The notes beneath the pieces were generated by a model, which saw only the letters and a program-made list of their open reading frames with translations, was not told where the DNA came from and did not search any database. The position numbers were made by a program, and so were the translations under genes. 64,000 bases of DNA from an uncultured Gammaproteobacteria bacterium (GTDB lineage Bacteria; Patescibacteriota; Patescibacteriia; Magasanikbacterales; UBA922): the NCBI GenBank assembly GCA_964597575.1, contig CAZQXB010000001.1:128964-192963 (forward strand), read 5' to 3'. Shown piece by piece: positions 20,945 through 58,783 of the stretch. Each line of letters starts with the position of its first letter. Positions within the stretch are counted from its first letter, which is position 1.

Positions 20945-21021
20945 TGGGGTGACTAACGGGAATCGAACCCGTGATAAGGGTACCACAAACCCCTGTGTTA
21001 CCTCTACACCATAGTCACCCC
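20945..21021 (-). tRNA. tRNA-His (anticodon GTG)
   Basis: The reverse complement folds as a cloverleaf: acceptor stem GGGGTGA/TCACCCC with an extra 5' G, anticodon stem GGGGT/ACCCT with loop TTGTGGT, and T-arm ACGGG-TTCGATT-CCCGT. The 3' half closely resembles E. coli tRNA-His. Confidence 0.85.
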
Positions 21022-21839: not shown

Positions 21840-21865
21840 ATGCGAAAGAAAGAAATAATTTTTTG

Positions 21866-21937
21866 TGTCCCTGCTAGGAATCGAACCTAGATCTAGAGCT
21901 TAGAAGGCTCTCGTTCTATCCATTGAACTACAAGGAC
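21866..21937 (-). tRNA. tRNA-Arg (anticodon TCT)
   Basis: The reverse complement is GTCCTTGTAGTTCAATGGATAGAACGAGAGCCTTCTAAGCTCTAGATCTAGGTTCGATTCCTAGCAGGGACA. It has a 7-bp acceptor stem, D-stem GTTC/GAAC, anticodon stem AGAGC/GCTCT with loop CTTCTAA, and T-arm CTAGG-TTCGATT-CCTAG. Confidence 0.9.
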
Positions 21938-30562: not shown

Positions 30563-30804
30563 TTGACAGCACACCCATTCTCTCGTACAGTACCTCTATT
30601 CATGTACGCATTTGTACGCTCTGCTATCAACAGAGTCCCGTAGGGAATGGAGAGAAAGAAATCCCCTCAAAAGGAGAGTAAAATCTCTCGGGTCGGCCCG
30701 TTATAGCCTTAAAGTAAGTGTCTTTGTCCCAAGCAAAGAAAGTGAGATGGTACCATCCCGTAAACAGGGATTCTCGCACGACCAACGTGTTTTTTTGTTT
30801 TTTT
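30563..30804 (+). promoter_or_regulatory. ileS leader: promoter (TTGACA-17-TACAGT) plus T-box-like antiterminator element
   Basis: An untranslated leader of about 240 nt. At 30744-30775 the sequence is GAGA|UGGUACC|AUCCC-guaaaca-GGGAU|UCUC. This reads as helix A1, a 7-nt UGGNACC bulge and helix A2. A small hairpin plus a U-run lies immediately before the ATG. Confidence 0.5.
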
Positions 30805-33729
30805 ATGCCCTATAACGCGAACGAAGAAGAGAAAAAAGTCCAAAAATTTTGGGAAGAAAAGCAGATTTTTGAAAAATCCGTTTCTTTGCGACCAGAAAAC
30901 AAACCCTATACGTTTTACGATGGTCCACCATTTGCAACCGGATTGCCCCACTATGGGCATATTTCTGTAAGTGTTATTAAAGATATTGTCGGTCGGTATT
31001 TTTCCATGAAAGGATATCGAGTAGAGCGTCGTTGGGGTTGGGATTGCCACGGACTCCCAATTGAAAACCTTGTAGAAAAAGAAAAAGGTTTTTCGGGTCG
31101 GCCAGACATTTTGGCGTATGGAGTCGACAAATTTAACGAAGCCTGCCGCGACACTGTTTTGCGCTACCGCGAAGAGTGGAAATTGACCATCAAGCGTATG
31201 GGTCGTTTTGTCGACATGGAAAATGACTACAAAACCATGGACACGCCCTTTATGGAGAGTGTCTGGTGGGTATTTTCTGAGCTATATAAAAAAGGGCTTA
31301 TCTATGAAGGGCATAAAGCCATGCATATTTGTCCGCATTGCGTGACCCCACTTTCTAATTTTGAAGTGACCGACGGTTATAAGGATGTCAAAGATATTTC
31401 AGTATATGCGTCGTTTAAGTTAAAGAATCCAGAAAAGGTTTTGGCAGTAACAGGTGATGTGTATGCGATTGCCTGGACAACGACACCGTGGACATTGCCG
31501 GGAAATGTGGCCTTAGCCGTAAACAAAGAAGTGGTATACGTGGTTGTGAGTATTGAGGGCGATGAAAAGAAATATCTTTTAGCGAAAGAATTGGTCAATG
31601 CGGTTATCGATAACAAGGTGTACCAAGTACTTGAAGAGGTGACGGGGGCAGCACTTCAGGGCGTAGAGTATGAACCACTTTTTCCTTATTTTAAGGATAC
31701 CGAAAATGCATTTCGTATTGTCGCTGCTGATTTTGTCTCAACCGAAAGTGGCGCTGGAATTGTACATATCGCACCAGCGTTCGGTGAAGACGATTATAAT
31801 TTGGGAAAGCGTGAAAAAATACCTCTTGTGCAACATGTTGGAATGGACGGAAAGTTTACCAAAGACGTGACCGATTTCGTAGGGATTGATGTGAAGCCAA
31901 AAGATGACCCTACGGCGACCGATGTTCTTGTTATTAAATGGCTGGCCGGGAAAGGACAGTTATTTGCAAAGAAAAAAATTGAACATAGTTATCCACATTG
32001 TTGGCGCTGTGATACCCCGCTTTTGAATTATGCCACCTCAAGTTGGTTTGTGAAGGTGGAACACATGAAAAAGCAGCTTCTTGAAAATAATCAAAAAACA
32101 TCATGGGTTCCGAATCACATGCGCGATGGCCGATTTGGGAACTGGCTTGAAGGGGCTCATGATTGGGCAATTTCTCGAAACCGATTTTGGGGAACGCCAC
32201 TCCCTGTTTGGAAAAGTGAGGACGGGGAAGTGCTTTGCGTAGGTTCGGTTAAAGAATTGGAAACACTGACAGGAAAAACAGTAACTGATCTTCATAAACA
32301 CATTGTGGACGATTTGGTGATCGAGAAGAACGGAAAAACATTTAAAAGAATTCCTGAAGTGCTCGACTGTTGGTTTGAGTCAGGTTCAATGCCATACGGG
32401 CAAATGCATTACCCGTTTGAAAATAAGGAAAAATTTGAAGCAGGATTTCCAGCGAATTTTATTGGTGAAGCTCAAGATCAAACTCGTGGTTGGTTCTACA
32501 CCTTGCATGTGCTCGCTACGGCGCTCACACTTGGTGATAAGCCGTCTATTCCTGTGCGTGAGTCGGTTCCAGCGTTTCAAAATGTGATTGTGAACGGAAT
32601 CGTGCTTGCAGAAGACGGAAAAAAGATGAGTAAAAAGTTAAAAAATTATCCTGATCCGAATGAAATTATTGCTAAATACGGAGTTGATGCAGTCCGCTAT
32701 TATTTAGCAGTCTCACCGGTGATGCATGCAGAAAATTTGAATTTTTCCGAAGCCGGAGTACGAGAGGTATATAACAAAATCGTAAACACGCTTGCAAACG
32801 TGCTCGTATTTTACGAATCATTTGCCGAAGATGCCAAAGAATCTTCGAAGCCAAGTCTACATGTGCTTGATATTTGGATTCATGCCAAACTTCGCGAGTG
32901 TGTTCGTGAGGTGTCTCGTGGGCTTGAAAGTTATGCTCTTGCAGAAGCCGCTCGGCCAATCGGTGCGTTCGTTGATGTACTTTCAACCTGGTGGTTGCGT
33001 CGTAGCCGTGATCGTTTTAAGGGAGAGGACGAAGCAGATAAGCAGCACGCACTTTTAACACTCAAATCGATTCTCCAAGAATTCTCTAAAGTGTTAGCTC
33101 CTTTTGCTCCGTTTATGGCAGAGGTGTTGTATCAAAAAACAAACGGTGCCATGGAAAGTGTTCATTTGGAATTATGGCCTTCTGTTTTAGAGAATGAGAC
33201 GGCTGAGGTTCAGAAAGTGATCGATACAATGAGTCAGACCCGTATTTTGGTCGAATTAGGGCTTTCCCTTCGAGCTGAGGAAGCCGTAAAAGTGCGTCAG
33301 GTGCTTCAAAGTGTTGCCACGACTCCAGAATTGCCGTCAGAATTCGCCGCGATTCTTCTTGAAGAATTGAACGTGAAAGAAATGAAAAAGATCGACGACA
33401 TGCGTGAGCATTCTTCTTCCTGGAAGGAAAAAGAAGGGGAGGGTTGTCGTGTCATTCTCGATACTGAAATAACAGAAGCACTTCGTATTGAAGGATTTCT
33501 TCGTGATCTCATTCGTACAATTAATCAAAAAAGAAAAGAAATGAAATTAACGCGAGAAACCGCGATTCATTTGGGGATTACCGGGGGCGAGATGACAAAA
33601 AAGGTTGTGTCTCAATATGCAGAGGAACTCATGCGTCAAGTTATCGCAAAAGAAATACAAGACGCCGTGGACGAAGACACTGTTGATGTGGCCGGGGAGT
33701 CTGTGAAAATACATATTCAGGCCGTGTAG
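30805..33729 (+). CDS. ileS: isoleucine--tRNA ligase
   Basis: HIGH-region PHYGH, KMSKS-type KMSKKL, editing domain and C-terminal domain are present. The start is set at MPYNANEEE. Confidence 0.95.
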   Translation: MPYNANEEEKKVQKFWEEKQIFEKSVSLRPENKPYTFYDGPPFATGLPHYGHISVSVIKDIVGRYFSMKGYRVERRWGWDCHGLPIENLVEKEKGFSGRPDILAYGVDKFNEACRDTVLRYREEWKLTIKRMGRFVDMENDYKTMDTPFMESVWWVFSELYKKGLIYEGHKAMHICPHCVTPLSNFEVTDGYKDVKDISVYASFKLKNPEKVLAVTGDVYAIAWTTTPWTLPGNVALAVNKEVVYVVVSIEGDEKKYLLAKELVNAVIDNKVYQVLEEVTGAALQGVEYEPLFPYFKDTENAFRIVAADFVSTESGAGIVHIAPAFGEDDYNLGKREKIPLVQHVGMDGKFTKDVTDFVGIDVKPKDDPTATDVLVIKWLAGKGQLFAKKKIEHSYPHCWRCDTPLLNYATSSWFVKVEHMKKQLLENNQKTSWVPNHMRDGRFGNWLEGAHDWAISRNRFWGTPLPVWKSEDGEVLCVGSVKELETLTGKTVTDLHKHIVDDLVIEKNGKTFKRIPEVLDCWFESGSMPYGQMHYPFENKEKFEAGFPANFIGEAQDQTRGWFYTLHVLATALTLGDKPSIPVRESVPAFQNVIVNGIVLAEDGKKMSKKLKNYPDPNEIIAKYGVDAVRYYLAVSPVMHAENLNFSEAGVREVYNKIVNTLANVLVFYESFAEDAKESSKPSLHVLDIWIHAKLRECVREVSRGLESYALAEAARPIGAFVDVLSTWWLRRSRDRFKGEDEADKQHALLTLKSILQEFSKVLAPFAPFMAEVLYQKTNGAMESVHLELWPSVLENETAEVQKVIDTMSQTRILVELGLSLRAEEAVKVRQVLQSVATTPELPSEFAAILLEELNVKEMKKIDDMREHSSSWKEKEGEGCRVILDTEITEALRIEGFLRDLIRTINQKRKEMKLTRETAIHLGITGGEMTKKVVSQYAEELMRQVIAKEIQDAVDEDTVDVAGESVKIHIQAV

Positions 33730-42408: not shown

Positions 42409-44238
42409 ATGAAGCAACTTTTGAAACAATTTTTCCTTGTTATTGCAGTCTTAACGCTTGTGGCGTACGGGCTTAGTTTCGCAGCAAATCGTGCGGAAAA
42501 ACCACAAGATGTGGGCATTAGTAAGCTTGTTGAGCAGATTGAAGCAGAGGAGGTAAAGAGCATCGAGGTGAGAGGGGATTACATGTATGTAACCCTCAAA
42601 AAAGAAGGTGAAAAACAGGAAAAGGTGCGCAAAGAATATACGCAATCATTTTCTGAACTCATGACCGACTACGGTGTGGCCGGAGAAAAACTTCAAGGTG
42701 TTGAGGTGTCAGTGAAGGATGAAAGTGGTGTTGCTTTTTGGGTAAAATCACTCGCACCTTACTTGCTTCCATTTCTTCTTTTGGGAGGCCTTCTTTTCTT
42801 CATGACCCGCCAGGTAAACGGAGCAAACAGCCGGGCGATGGGTTTTGGTCAAAGCAGCGCAAAAGAAGTAAAACCAGAAGAAAGCAAAGAAAAGAAAACC
42901 TTTAAAGATGTTGCAGGTGCCAAAGAAGCGAAGGAGGAGCTTGAAGAAGTCGTGGATTTCTTAAAGAATCCGAAAAAATTTGCAGACATGGGTGCAAAAA
43001 TCCCTAAGGGGGTGCTTCTCATGGGGTCTCCTGGTACCGGTAAGACACTTCTTGCAAAAGCCGTTGCCGGAGAAGCCGGAGTCCCATTTTTCCACATGAG
43101 CGGTTCTGAATTCGTAGAAATGTTTGTGGGGGTCGGTGCGTCACGGGTACGTGATTTATTTCAAAAGGCGAAAAAATCTGCTCCAGCGATTATTTTCATC
43201 GATGAAATTGATGCGGTAGGTCGGAAACGTGGTGCGGGTTTAGGTGGAAGCCATGATGAACGTGAACAAACCTTGAACCAAATTCTCGTTGAAATGGACG
43301 GGTTTGATCCAAACATTGGGGTGATCGTTATGGCGGCAACGAATCGCCCAGATGTACTCGATCAGGCACTTCTTCGCCCTGGTCGTTTTGATCGTCGAGT
43401 CGTCATCGATAAGCCAGACTTAGCGGCGCGTTTAGAAATTTTACAGGTGCATGCAAAAAACAAGCCGTTCTCTCCTGAGGTGTCTATGCAGCGGTTAGCA
43501 GAACGCACCCCTGGATTTACCGGGGCAGATTTGGCGAATCTTCTCAATGAAGCGGCCATTCTTGCGGTGCGCCGCGGAAAGAAAATTATTGATCAGACCG
43601 ATGTTTTGGAGAGCATTGATAAAGTAATTTTAGGGCCAGAAAAACGTTCACGGGTGATGACTGATAAAGAACGTGAAATGACCGCGTACCACGAAGCTGG
43701 CCACGCGATTGTAGGTCACTTTATGCCAAAATGCGACCCTGTGCGTAAGGTGTCGATTATTGGTCGTGGTATGGCCGGGGGTTACACCTTGTCGATGCCA
43801 GAAACCGATAAACGTTACGAAACACTCGGCGACTTTAAAGACGACATGGCTATGGCTATGGGCGGCTACGTGGCTGAAGTGATGATGTATGGCCGTGACA
43901 ACCTTTCAACTGGCCCATCGAGCGATTTGAAAAAAGCGACTCAGATGGCAACTGCCATGGTCGTGCGCTATGGTATGAGTGAAAAATTGGGAACGCGTGT
44001 GTTTGGAGAGAATGAAGAACTTATTTTCTTGGCACAAGAAATTCATGAAAAGAAAAATTATAGTGAAAAGACTGCTGAAATGATTGACAGTGAAATTGCC
44101 GCAATTTTAGAAGAAGCAAAACAACGCGCAGAAAAAGTACTACAAGAAAAGAAACACAAGATGGATGCGCTTGTAAAAGTACTCATGGCCAAAGAAACCG
44201 TAGAACAGGATGAGTTTAAAAAGATCATGGAGGCGTAA
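42409..44238 (+). CDS. ftsH: ATP-dependent zinc metalloprotease FtsH
   Basis: N-terminal TM helices, AAA+ Walker A GSPGTGKT, the second region of homology, and the zinc motif HEAGHAIVG. Confidence 0.95.
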
Positions 44239-56769: not shown

Positions 56770-57028
56770 CTTGACAAAAAAGGTCGGCCGCAGTAATTTA
56801 CCTCTTGCAGAAAAGATACAGAAAGACGCAAACCCGAACAGGGAGAAATAACCGCGATTGAGAGTTATTTCACGGAAAGGCGTTTTCTCTACCACTTTTC
56901 CCATTTTCAAACAATCCATTAAAGAAAATAATCGGGTGGAACCGTCCTTCGCTTTTAAGGACCCCGATACATTGCTGATATGTGTATATCATCGATGTAT
57001 CGGGGTTTTTCTTTTTAACAATATTTGT
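56770..57028 (+). promoter_or_regulatory. thrS leader: candidate T-box riboswitch (antiterminator + intrinsic terminator)
   Basis: A TTGACA promoter lies at 56771. At 56931-56970 the sequence is AUCGGG|UGGAACC|GUCCUU-cgcuuu-AAGGAC|CCCGAU. This reads as helix A1, the canonical 7-nt UGGNACC bulge and helix A2. The mutually exclusive terminator CCCCGATACA…TGTATCGGGG+TTTTTCTTTTT (56962-57016) abuts the ATG. Confidence 0.65.
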
Positions 57029-58783
57029 ATGTCAGAACAACAAAGCCAAATGGATGCTCTGCGTCACAGCGCAGCTCATATGCTTGCCGCAGCAGTACTT
57101 AAATTGTATCCCGATACAAAGCTTGGTATTGGCCCTACCGTTGAAAACGGATTTTATTACGATTTTCTTTTTCCGGAAGGAGTGATGGTGGGTGAGAAGG
57201 AGCTCCAAAAAATTGAGAACGTGATGAGAAATATTTCGGGCGAGGGCCATGCATTTATTGGTAAGCCTGTTTCAGTCGACGAGGCGAAACAATTTGAGAA
57301 AAACCAACCATTTAAGCTCGAACTCATTGAAGAGTTTTCTCAGGAAGGAAAAGACCTGACCTTATATGAGTCTGGTCCATTTACCGACCTTTGCCGTGGG
57401 GGACACGCTGAAAATACAAAGGAAATTCCCATGGGCGGTTTAAAGCTTGATCGAGTGGCTGGCGCATATTGGCGCGGAGACGAGAAAAAACAAATGCTCA
57501 CACGTATTTACGGATATCTTTTTCCCTCAAAAGCTGAGCTCGATGCACACTTAACAATGCTTGAAGAGGCAAAGAAACGCGACCACCGTAAACTTGGCCG
57601 CGAACTCAAATTATTTACTATTTCAGAATTAATTGGACCAGGGCTTCCCCTTATGCAACCAAGGGGGATGATTGTGCGTAAAGCCGTTGAAGATTATTTG
57701 TGGGAACTCCATAAAGATTTGGAATATAGTCGTGTCTGGACTCCTCATATTGCGAAAGTTGCACTATACGAAACATCGGGTCATGCCGCGAAGTTTGGTG
57801 ATGAATTATTTCGTGTTCAAGGAAAAGAAGAAAGTTTCATCATGAAGCCAATGAATTGCCCGCACCACATGCAAATTTTTGCGGATAATCAGTTTTCCTA
57901 TCGTGATATGCCGGTTCGATATTTTGAACCAGCTACCGTGTATCGTGATGAAAAATCCGGTCAACTCGGTGGTCTTACTCGGGTACGTGCTATTACGCAA
58001 GATGACGGTCATTTGTTCTGTCGCAGTGTACAGATTGCTGAGGAAGTAAAAACGATTATCTCAGTTATTAAGAAGTTCTATACAACAATGGGCATGATGG
58101 AGGGATACTGGGTGCGCCTATCCCTTCGCGGTGATGATACGAGTAAGTATCTCGGTTCCGATGAAGTGTGGGCTATGGCTGAAAAGGCCTTAACTGATGT
58201 TTGTGAAAGTGAACAATTGCCATATAAACCAGCAAAAGATGAGGCGGCATTTTATGGTCCAAAGCTTGATTTCATGTTCAAAGATGCGATTGGCCGTGAA
58301 TGGCAGCTTGCCACAATTCAGTGTGATTTTAATTTACCAGAACGTTTCGACCTCTCATTTGTAAATGAGAAAGGGGATCGTGAACGTCCGGTAGTAATCC
58401 ACCGAGCTATCTCAGGGTCATTAGAGCGGTTTATGGGGGTGATGATTGAGCACTTCGCTGGAGCGTTCCCTGTATGGATGGCCCCAGTTCAAGTAGCATT
58501 CATACCGGTATCAGAAAAACACCAAGAAGGTGCGCACGAAATGATGAAACGATTTCGGAAAGAAGGAGTTCGTGTGGATATCGATATGTCGAATGAGACC
58601 GTCGGTAAAAAAATTCGTGCAGCTGCAACCGGCAAAATTCCTTACATTATCGTCGTTGGAGATAAAGAATTGTCAGGTGGGCCATTACAGGTTCGTGTTC
58701 GTGGGCAAGAAGAACCTCTTGTGATTTCTGAAACAGACTTTTTGACGCGAGTGGTACAAGAAGCAAAAGAGCGAGCTGCCTAA
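57029..58783 (+). CDS. thrS: threonine--tRNA ligase (lacking N-terminal TGS domain)
   Basis: Class II motifs, the editing/N2 domain starting HSAAHMLAAAV, and a C-terminal anticodon-binding domain are present. The start is set at MSEQQSQ just after the leader terminator. Confidence 0.95.
   Translation: MSEQQSQMDALRHSAAHMLAAAVLKLYPDTKLGIGPTVENGFYYDFLFPEGVMVGEKELQKIENVMRNISGEGHAFIGKPVSVDEAKQFEKNQPFKLELIEEFSQEGKDLTLYESGPFTDLCRGGHAENTKEIPMGGLKLDRVAGAYWRGDEKKQMLTRIYGYLFPSKAELDAHLTMLEEAKKRDHRKLGRELKLFTISELIGPGLPLMQPRGMIVRKAVEDYLWELHKDLEYSRVWTPHIAKVALYETSGHAAKFGDELFRVQGKEESFIMKPMNCPHHMQIFADNQFSYRDMPVRYFEPATVYRDEKSGQLGGLTRVRAITQDDGHLFCRSVQIAEEVKTIISVIKKFYTTMGMMEGYWVRLSLRGDDTSKYLGSDEVWAMAEKALTDVCESEQLPYKPAKDEAAFYGPKLDFMFKDAIGREWQLATIQCDFNLPERFDLSFVNEKGDRERPVVIHRAISGSLERFMGVMIEHFAGAFPVWMAPVQVAFIPVSEKHQEGAHEMMKRFRKEGVRVDIDMSNETVGKKIRAAATGKIPYIIVVGDKELSGGPLQVRVRGQEEPLVISETDFLTRVVQEAKERAA

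Follow-up and report, generated by a model that had tools for sequence, protein, structure and literature searches.

A 64,000-nucleotide (nt) stretch of contig CAZQXB010000001.1 (hereafter, the window) contains the threonine–tRNA ligase gene thrS. We find that the leader in front of this gene is, with a probability that we put at about 85%, a threonine-specific T-box transcription attenuator, structurally reduced, in a member of the Patescibacteria (candidate phyla radiation, CPR). The leader has the features at the core of the T-box definition (the bulge, a competing terminator, a cognate specifier and, in the tRNAs of relatives, a compatible discriminator base), but several accessory ones fail. 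By analogy with the known T-box mechanism, it would bind tRNA-Thr and sense its charge. An earlier analysis of the letters alone (the sequence-only reading) had proposed a canonical T-box at this place. Geometry, conservation and specifier all argue for a leader of T-box type that would sense tRNA-Thr, but 'canonical' does not describe it: there is no match to Rfam family RF00230 (T-box leader) at threshold, and Stem III, the K-turn, Stem II and the usual distal motifs of Stem I are absent. Except where marked (−), all window features given below lie on the + strand.

The antiterminator occupies 56931–56968. Helix A1 consists of 6 base pairs (bp) between AUCGGG (56931–36) and CCCGAU (56963–68); its 5′ strand reads AAUCGGG (56930–36), of which direct reading of the sequence pairs the six bases 56931–36. 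Between A1 and the 6-bp helix A2 (GUCCUU, 56944–49, with AAGGAC, 56957–62) lies the 7-nt T-box bulge UGGAACC (56937–43). All of these strings stand where the sequence-only reading had put them, except that the A2 loop, given there as cgcuuu, is the 7-nt CGCUUUU (56950–56). An intrinsic terminator follows (56962–57016): a 13-bp plus 6-bp hairpin (56962–57005), in which CCCCGAUACAUUG (56962–74) pairs with CGAUGUAUCGGGG (56993–57005) and encloses an inner 6-bp helix, and then the U-run UUUUUCUUUUU (57006–16). The thrS ATG is 12 nt further on, at 57029. The 3′ strand of A1 (56963–68) is contained in the 5′ strand of the terminator (56962–74), so the two structures are mutually exclusive. Both the reuse of this strand by a strong terminator ending 12 nt before the ATG and the exclusion of one structure by the other had been anticipated; strand overlap and folding energies bear them out. 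Over 56930–57016 the terminator state has −36.1 kcal/mol versus −13.3 kcal/mol for A1 plus A2. Termination is therefore the default state. Readthrough calls for a ligand that holds the antiterminator together; in T-boxes this role falls to the uncharged 3′ end of a tRNA that is docked on the specifier beforehand. We also noted that the A2 pair adjacent to the bulge is G56944–C56962, not the G·U wobble that acts as a steric sensor. We regard this as a minor departure; a G-C pair at this position is functional in streptococcal glyQS T-boxes (PMC11404447), and it is found also in Chloroflexi thrS leaders that were fetched via the protein.

The leader fold is more stable than 200 of 200 shuffles (z = −4.8). 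Taken alone, the 9-mer GGTGGNACC is not significant (2 matches in the window versus 1.24 expected). When the full geometry is demanded (A1 of at least 4 bp, a 7-nt bulge, A2 of at least 4 bp), three of the 28 TGGNACC sites in the window show it, and two of these three immediately precede the aminoacyl-tRNA synthetase genes thrS and ileS. The remaining one, at 43027–43073, is in the Walker-A coding sequence of ftsH (CCTGGTACCGGTAAGAC); it is a chance mimic and a false positive for motif-based T-box scans.

The core of the thrS leader is not a matter of chance, because it is conserved in relatives. One set of relatives was anchored on the threonyl-tRNA synthetase (ThrRS) and is thus independent of the RNA sequence. 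Within it, L081 (90% ThrRS identity), L082 and L084 (71%) carry CGGGUGGAACCGUC, an A2 hairpin that differs in sequence but still pairs, GACCCCGG, and a terminator with its U-run; between L081 and the window the sequences of A2 and terminator have changed and the pairing has been kept. The gene order T2SSE, hypothetical gene, thrS is common to the window and these three loci. Related T-box cores with UGGA are present in L013, L017, L039 and L086. A ThrRS search of genome contigs gave mostly distant phyla among the matches listed, and these were used as a control set.

A second set came from a scan of metagenomes anchored on the core (pattern CGGGTGGAACCGTC N5-35 GACCCCG, 21 bases), which returned at least 120 loci versus about 17 expected by chance on our own estimate. 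At least 71 of them have a ThrRS just downstream, with 40–58% identity to the window protein. About 25 of the listed loci are G+C-rich coding DNA without a T-run and were taken as chance matches; the other listed loci are upstream of a glycyl-tRNA synthetase (GlyRS) or GNAT gene, or at contig ends. Family statistics were computed on 83 non-redundant A+T-rich leaders, and it is everything outside the core that counts as independent evidence from this family. In 72 of 80 leaders, the CCCCG of A1 opens a stem of 7 bp or more, and a T-run comes after it. A2 can be extended by three or more consecutive pairs in 48% of the leaders, versus 12% with mismatched partners, and this with 47 different sequence combinations. 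In Stem I of 21 relatives that we class as 'Type A', 95.3% of cells are paired, versus 83.5% after shuffling (a value reached by 0 of 500 shuffles) and 31–51% with slid partners; 12 pairs have changed on both sides (0 of 500 shuffles), and the covariation score is 0.370 versus 0.165.

The specifier of the window leader is the Thr codon ACC (56891–93) together with the conserved purine A56894; ACC-A lies on the 3′ side of the Stem I loop, directly 5′ of the 3′ strand of the lower helix. A UACCAC block about 45 nt 5′ of the core is shared by the window leader, L081, L082 and L084. In the interval −100 to −25, 56 of 61 thrS-linked leaders contain ACCA, as compared with a mean of 14.8 and a maximum of 24 after shuffling, and none of the 6 glyS-linked leaders does; three of the five thrS-linked leaders without it read ACC-G, ACC-C or ACU-A. 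Aligned on a K-turn-like UUGGAG, thrS leaders read GGU-ACC-A-CUC, and glyS leaders read AGU-GGC-U-UCC, GGU-GGA-A-UCC or GUU-GGC-A-ACC; the identity of the downstream GlyRS was confirmed by NF003211. Because the same aligned slot holds ACC in front of thrS and GGC or GGA in front of glyS, the triplet changes with the amino acid that the regulated synthetase handles, and such agreement is what marks a T-box specifier. RNAalifold leaves the invariant ACCAC of the 21 Type A relatives unpaired on the 3′ side of an internal loop, where it abuts the 3′ strand of a 5-bp helix in which 5 of 5 pairs covary. We considered, and rejected, a pairing of ACCA with UGGU across this loop: both natural variants (L082, L112) break it. 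On the 5′ side of the specifier loop, AACCAGCCCAG is invariant in 24 Type A thrS leaders (alignment A1 columns 17–27; e.g., L198, L178, L119) and may replace the S-turn that normally shapes this loop.

The behaviour of the specifier also bears on another kind of thrS control. The enterobacterial gene is autoregulated by ThrRS, which binds its own leader; the window leader might then be a protein-binding operator of the Escherichia coli type, in which ThrRS binds mimics of the anticodon arm and the likeness to a T-box is coincidental. Like that operator, the window leader would regulate thrS according to the economy of tRNA-Thr and ThrRS, and it holds several hairpins. However, the E. coli operator mimics an anticodon arm and binds protein, whereas the window leader displays a codon and a bulge that would bind a tRNA 3′ end. 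What the loop conserves is a codon, ACC, and no anticodon (GGU, UGU or CGU), this triplet switches to Gly or Ile codons upstream of glyS or ileS, and neither the UGGNACC bulge nor the match of its N to the tRNA discriminator has a role in an operator. We find such an operator scarcely credible.

The T-box reading draws further on the discriminator base. Two CPR tRNA-Thr genes were found, tRNA-Thr(GGU) of L033 and tRNA-Thr(UGU) of L087. In each, the discriminator base is U73, the partner of the A in UGGA; as far as these two relatives go, this agrees with the U expected by the sequence-only reading. UGGA itself is present in 10 of the 11 thrS T-box cores that were found independently of the core pattern. 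Neither tRNA-Thr gene encodes CCA, nor does a tRNA-Gly gene (L213 11751–11824) encode a 3′ CCA, so the CCA that the T-box reads must be added post-transcriptionally.

Upstream of the leader we noted a promoter-like site (56771–56799), with a −35 TTGACA (56771–76), a 17-nt spacer and a −10 TAATTT (56794–99). The −35 matches the consensus at 6 of 6 positions and the −10 at only 3 of 6; for the latter reason, a consensus promoter scan did not flag 56771–56799. Promoter-like sites stand in the same place in relatives (TTGACT-17-TATAGT in L082; TTGACC-17-TAAACT in L086). We infer that this is the promoter of the thrS leader, with a transcription start predicted near 56806. We hypothesize that the leader works as follows: from a start near 56806, Stem I (56810–56900) would be made and would present ACC (56891–93) and its purine to the GGU anticodon of tRNA-Thr, with which the codon would pair. 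If that tRNA is uncharged, its free U73-C-C-A end would pair with UGGA (56937–40) in the bulge, which would stabilise the weak A1/A2 structure (about −13 kcal/mol) and let RNA polymerase read through into thrS. If the tRNA is charged or absent, the 3′ strand of A1 (56963–68) would be captured by the terminator (about −36 kcal/mol), and transcription would stop at the U-run (57006–16).

The position of the terminator relative to the gene invites a different view, namely that the T-box is mainly translational, its hairpin and U-run hiding the initiation region in the manner of actinobacterial ileS T-boxes. The U-run ends 12 nt before the ATG, no Shine-Dalgarno sequence is present in 57017–57031, between U-run and thrS ATG (AACAAUAUUUGU-AUG), and known T-boxes with a short Stem I do act on translation (PMC7583486, PMC7778990). 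Nevertheless, with its 13+6 bp, its G+C-rich base and the UUUUUCUUUUU behind it, the hairpin has the textbook form of an intrinsic terminator, and it leaves the ATG uncovered. Furthermore, anything from 28 to more than 1000 nt separates the core from the start of the ThrRS match in relatives, which means that the terminator stands at widely varying distances from the start codon; a GNAT gene intervenes in L093. Mainly translational control is accordingly highly improbable in our judgement, and we continue with transcription attenuation.

For Stem I of the window leader we prefer a long model (56810–56900) that is suggested by thermodynamics, its parts being named after those of known T-boxes. 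Its lower helix would pair GAAAAG (56810–15) with CUUUUC (56895–900); a 4x4 internal specifier loop would set AUAC (56816–19) opposite ACCA (56891–94); and the upper helix would pair 56820–29 with 56880–90, with C56887 bulged. The upper arm would lead into a three-way junction with hairpins H1 (56833–43) and H2 (56845–71), the latter a perfect 8-bp inverted repeat (56845–52 with 56864–71) composed of GAAAUAAC, the loop CGCGAUUGAGA and GUUAUUUC. H2 has pair probabilities of 0.98–0.99, and its sequence is not conserved in L081. It is a part of the Stem I distal region, not the specifier. This affects two elements to which the sequence-only reading had given functions. The string AAUAACCG, proposed as the specifier, is indeed at 56847–54, but its ACC (56851–53) is inside the H2 stem and is not conserved; GAGAG is at 56860–64, but it sits in the hairpin loop of H2 and not in the context of an AG bulge. 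The long model would begin about 4 nt past the predicted transcription start, and its upper helix is already formed in a growing transcript that has reached 56890, before the 3′ strand of the lower helix exists. In layout the model resembles the long Stem I of L133, L174, L126 and L084, where the lower helix likewise borders on ACC-A and the upper arm is long.

The alternative that we disfavour is a short hairpin, GGAAAGG (56874–80) with CUUUUCC (56895–901), that has a 14-nt terminal loop and shares the 3′ strand CUUUUC(C) with the long model. It is 5.6 kcal/mol less stable (−19.2 versus −24.8 kcal/mol for the long model), and pair probabilities are about 0 versus about 0.99. We note that ACGGAAAGGC (window 56872–56881; L081 24–33) is identical in the window and L081 while the flanking leader sequence has diverged. 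That identity counts for the short hairpin, and the preferred model does not explain it.

Several observations weigh against our interpretation of the leader as a T-box. No T-box was found upstream of thrS in the CPR relatives L083, L087, L089, L090, L001, L002, L004 and L007, and several close relatives with the same gene order (e.g., L083) are among those that have none; from this it follows that gain or loss of a T-box at thrS has happened more than once. Because the window's own core served to retrieve the metagenomic family, the core is invariant there by construction. The window Stem I fold has no comparative support: in blastn and nhmmer searches of all 213 loci, the matches to its subtype were L212, which is identical, and L081, which is truncated, and no others. 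The tRNA-Thr of the host was not found; the window holds only tRNA-His and tRNA-Arg (20945–21018 and 21865–21937 (−)), and one flank has tRNA-Gly(UCC, U73) and tRNA-Met. There is no Stem III, the 30-nt linker 56901–30 being without a hairpin, and Stem II, on which a Stem I that is truncated or atypical normally depends, is missing too. Finally, the top hit of RF00230 on the 171-nt pre-terminator leader reaches only 16.6 bits (E = 0.062; gathering score 93) and covers model positions 108–219 only, leaving Stem I unmatched.

The Rfam result deserves calibration. A search of the whole window with RF00230 yielded nothing that reached the gathering threshold, and on 501 nt there was no match even at E ≤ 10. 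The sub-threshold match to the leader places AAUCGGGUGGAACC...CCCGAUA on the consensus discriminator, the antiterminator at 56931–56968 being aligned to AAaUaGGGUGGUACC...CCCuuuu. Among thrS loci fetched via the protein, a Clostridium leader scores 124 bits and a Chloroflexota leader 93.7 bits, and the model misses the CPR leaders L013 and L017, as well as L039 and an Anaerolineae leader, despite their obvious GGUGGAACC cores. None of 20 family leaders reaches the threshold (0/20), the best sub-threshold scores being 32.7 and 24 bits. Because other CPR and Anaerolineae leaders with obvious cores are missed, failure of RF00230 is weak evidence in these lineages, and we set it aside as a decisive test, the more so as it barely passes the Chloroflexota leader. 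Of the three things that the sequence-only reading expected a false T-box to display, the lack of a significant RF00230 match was found, and a discriminator incompatible with UGGA and a missing specifier structure were not. TBDB was built from the RF00230 model and an Actinobacteria model (PMC7778990). Surveys based on Rfam or TBDB would miss leaders of this kind, given that 0 of 20 pass the curated threshold.

A further departure is at Stem III. In described T-boxes, 5′-RRRxG-Stem III-AA-3′ precedes A1, and Stem III is reported to be present in every known T-box and to be essential (PMC7583486, PMC11404447). The window leader has instead a purine string, AAAGAAAA (56921–56928), in which the RRRxG and AA flanks of Stem III are adjacent, 2 nt before A1. 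Two candidate remnants of Stem III were rejected: pairing of AUUUUC (56903–08) with GAAAAU (56924–29) contributes about −0.6 kcal/mol, lacks conservation and would put the purine string inside a helix, and the 'Stem III' forced by Rfam, GUUUUCU with AGAAAAU, has the same drawbacks. By a simple hairpin rule, a hairpin containing G+C stands where Stem III would be in 14 of 81 family leaders, mostly with GAGCG (or AAGUG) and AA(A)U at its sides, and these hairpin-bearing relatives read GAGCG-(hairpin)-AAAU-CGGG. The remaining leaders (about 83% of the 81) are without Stem III and have contiguous flanks, AAGUG-AAA-nnnn-CGGG; L189 has only 16 nt from Stem I to CGGG. L086, which was found via ThrRS and has a different core, is likewise without a hairpin at this position. 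From the sequences, the pattern looks like a clean deletion of Stem III that keeps the working flanks.

Could such losses simply be decay? One might suppose that the leader is the relic of a T-box, in which promoter and terminator set a constitutive low readthrough into thrS with no sensing of tRNA, the losses of Stem III, the K-turn and the Stem I platform being marks of decay in a reduced genome. It is true that elements reported as essential are missing (PMC7583486, PMC11404447) and that T-box presence is patchy among close relatives. On the other hand, the form without Stem III is carried by about 83% of 81 leaders whose ThrRS is only 40–58% identical to that of the window, and the specifier of these leaders agrees with the gene that follows. 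Also conserved are the bulge, the flanking purines and the overlap of antiterminator and terminator, and the helices of A2, terminator and Stem I are maintained by compensatory changes. A decaying element would not keep all of these features; for that reason we consider a relic improbable and retain the reading of a working, reduced T-box.

Other accessory elements are also wanting. No tandem G·A motif of the K-turn type flanks the lower helix 56810–15/56895–900; at the same place, Type A relatives carry GUUUGUAC opposite UCGGAGC. The AG bulge and distal loop, which form interdigitated T-loops for the tRNA elbow, were not recognised in the window leader, which has the three-way junction instead; AGAGA with a GGCUGAAA loop is retained in a few relatives (L084, L133, L113, L174). 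Stem II, the S-turn and the IIA/B pseudoknot are not in the 30-nt linker 56901–30.

Comparison with known systems shows both likenesses and differences. With class I transcriptional T-boxes of Firmicutes (e.g., Bacillus subtilis thrS/thrZ, RF00230) it shares the target gene, ACC plus purine on the 3′ side of the Stem I loop, UGGAACC between A1 and A2, a terminator that shares the 3′ strand of A1 and ends in a U-run, and a UGGA that would match U73. Unlike them, it lacks Stem II, the IIA/B pseudoknot, Stem III, the K-turn, the S-turn (AGUA/GAA) and the AG bulge/distal-loop platform, it has G-C and not G·U beside the bulge, and it scores 16.6 bits versus a gathering score of 93. T-boxes of the glyQS type are the closest in logic: they too have no Stem II, a short single-stranded linker, the identical bulge UGGAACC and a strong G/C-rich codon–anticodon pair (GGC-GCC in glyQS; ACC-GGU in the window leader). 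In glyQS, this strong pair is thought to make Stem II unnecessary (PMC7583486), and both the G-C above the bulge and the loss of the K-turn have streptococcal precedents (PMC11404447). However, Stem III and a long Stem I bearing the elbow-binding platform are retained in T-boxes of this type, and neither is recognisable in the window leader. The closest in Stem I reduction are the actinobacterial ileS T-boxes with an 'ultrashort' Stem I (Mycobacterium, Nocardia), which are alike in being natural truncations of Stem I; many of the relatives of the window leader, and the window ileS leader, show the codon in a small terminal loop. In the actinobacterial T-boxes, in contrast, a Stem II with its S-turn is needed, as is the IIA/B pseudoknot, Stem III is retained, and it is the ribosome-binding site that becomes sequestered; the window leader shows none of these traits and has an intrinsic terminator instead.

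A broader proposal is that Patescibacteria possess a widespread, hitherto undescribed class of minimal T-boxes on thrS, glyS and ileS, in which Stem III has been deleted and its purine flanks have come together, a hairpin with a YY-codon-R-N loop of 7 nt often serves as Stem I, and the sensing parts of some glyS leaders measure about 50 nt from promoter to discriminator. We judge the case for and against such a class to be evenly balanced. The window thrS leader would belong to this class and be distinguished by an unusual Stem I with a three-way junction. A literature search returned no paper linking T-boxes with Patescibacteria, candidate phyla radiation or Parcubacteria, although the clade may be described elsewhere. 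The discriminator without Stem III would be the surprising point for specialists: T-boxes are the best-understood RNA–RNA sensing switches, and structural work holds Stem III to be indispensable for charge sensing and a short Stem I to be compensated by Stem II. A natural clade that has retained codon, bulge and purine flanks without Stem III, and often without most of Stem I, would define the true minimal sensor and supply ready test constructs; if the minimal leaders work, charge reading needs only A1, the bulge, A2 and the purine string. T-box control would moreover reach CPR bacteria with very small genomes, in which regulation is poorly known.

The 584-residue product of thrS (57029–58783) scores 639.5 bits against NCBIfam TIGR00418 (cutoff 383.65) and has the Pfam domains tRNA_SAD, tRNA-synt_2b and HGTP_anticodon. 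Its alignment starts at residue 68 of the Staphylococcus aureus ThrRS and residue 65 of the E. coli ThrRS, which means that the N-terminal TGS domain is absent; this short form without TGS is common to all of the top 120 relatives (546–615 residues). The closest ThrRS relatives are named Candidatus Pacebacteria, Nomurabacteria, Paceibacterota or Patescibacteria group ('Candidatus Paceibacterota' is now filed by NCBI under the phylum Minisyncoccota). Among the neighbouring open reading frames (ORFs) of the window, many match no Pfam family and some are type IV pilus genes. The host is a Patescibacteria/CPR bacterium and not a Firmicute; the suggestion that the T-box points to Firmicutes fails on these ThrRS relatives, and in annotation a T-box is not to be taken as a marker of Firmicutes.

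A second T-box leader of the window (30563–30807) stands upstream of ileS (TIGR00392, 883.7 bits; ATG at 30805) and opens with a promoter-like TTGACA (30563–68). Its Stem I, GCAUUUGUACG-CUCUG-CU.AUC.AA-CAGAG, shows the Ile codon AUC plus A in a 7-nt terminal loop (30624–30), and it has a IIA/B-like element and Stem III. A1 (GUGAGA), the bulge UGGUACC (30748–54) and A2 (AUCCC/GGGAU) follow, and a small terminator hairpin (30776–90) overlaps A1 by only about 2 nt. The ileS ATG comes directly after a U-run. RF00230 gives this leader 31.3 bits (E = 1.7e-5), below the gathering score. Bacterial tRNA-Ile usually has A73, which the UGGU of the ileS bulge would fit.

In CPR metagenomes, glyS leaders with the same discriminator core were found in L099, L102, L125, L150, L177 and L188 (also L129, L140, L152, L197 and L199). 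Some have a Stem I of about 17 nt (UCUCC-CC.GGC.AC-GGAGA) that lies about 35 nt before the discriminator, and are without Stem III; these short glyS leaders are candidates for the smallest natural T-boxes. In some loci a NUDIX ORF lies between leader and glyS. In L093, L094, L132, L137 and L144, a small GNAT acetyltransferase gene (Pfam Acetyltransf_3) is the first gene after a Thr-specific T-box leader; thrS comes after it in L093, where the T-box appears to control a GNAT-thrS operon. Finally, Stem I of L084 contains, just 5′ of the specifier (1994–2029; identical in L085), a perfect 16-nt inverted repeat, CCGGTCATCCGACCGG-ACAC-CCGGTCGGATGACCGG, which looks like a small mobile or palindromic insert tolerated by the riboswitch.

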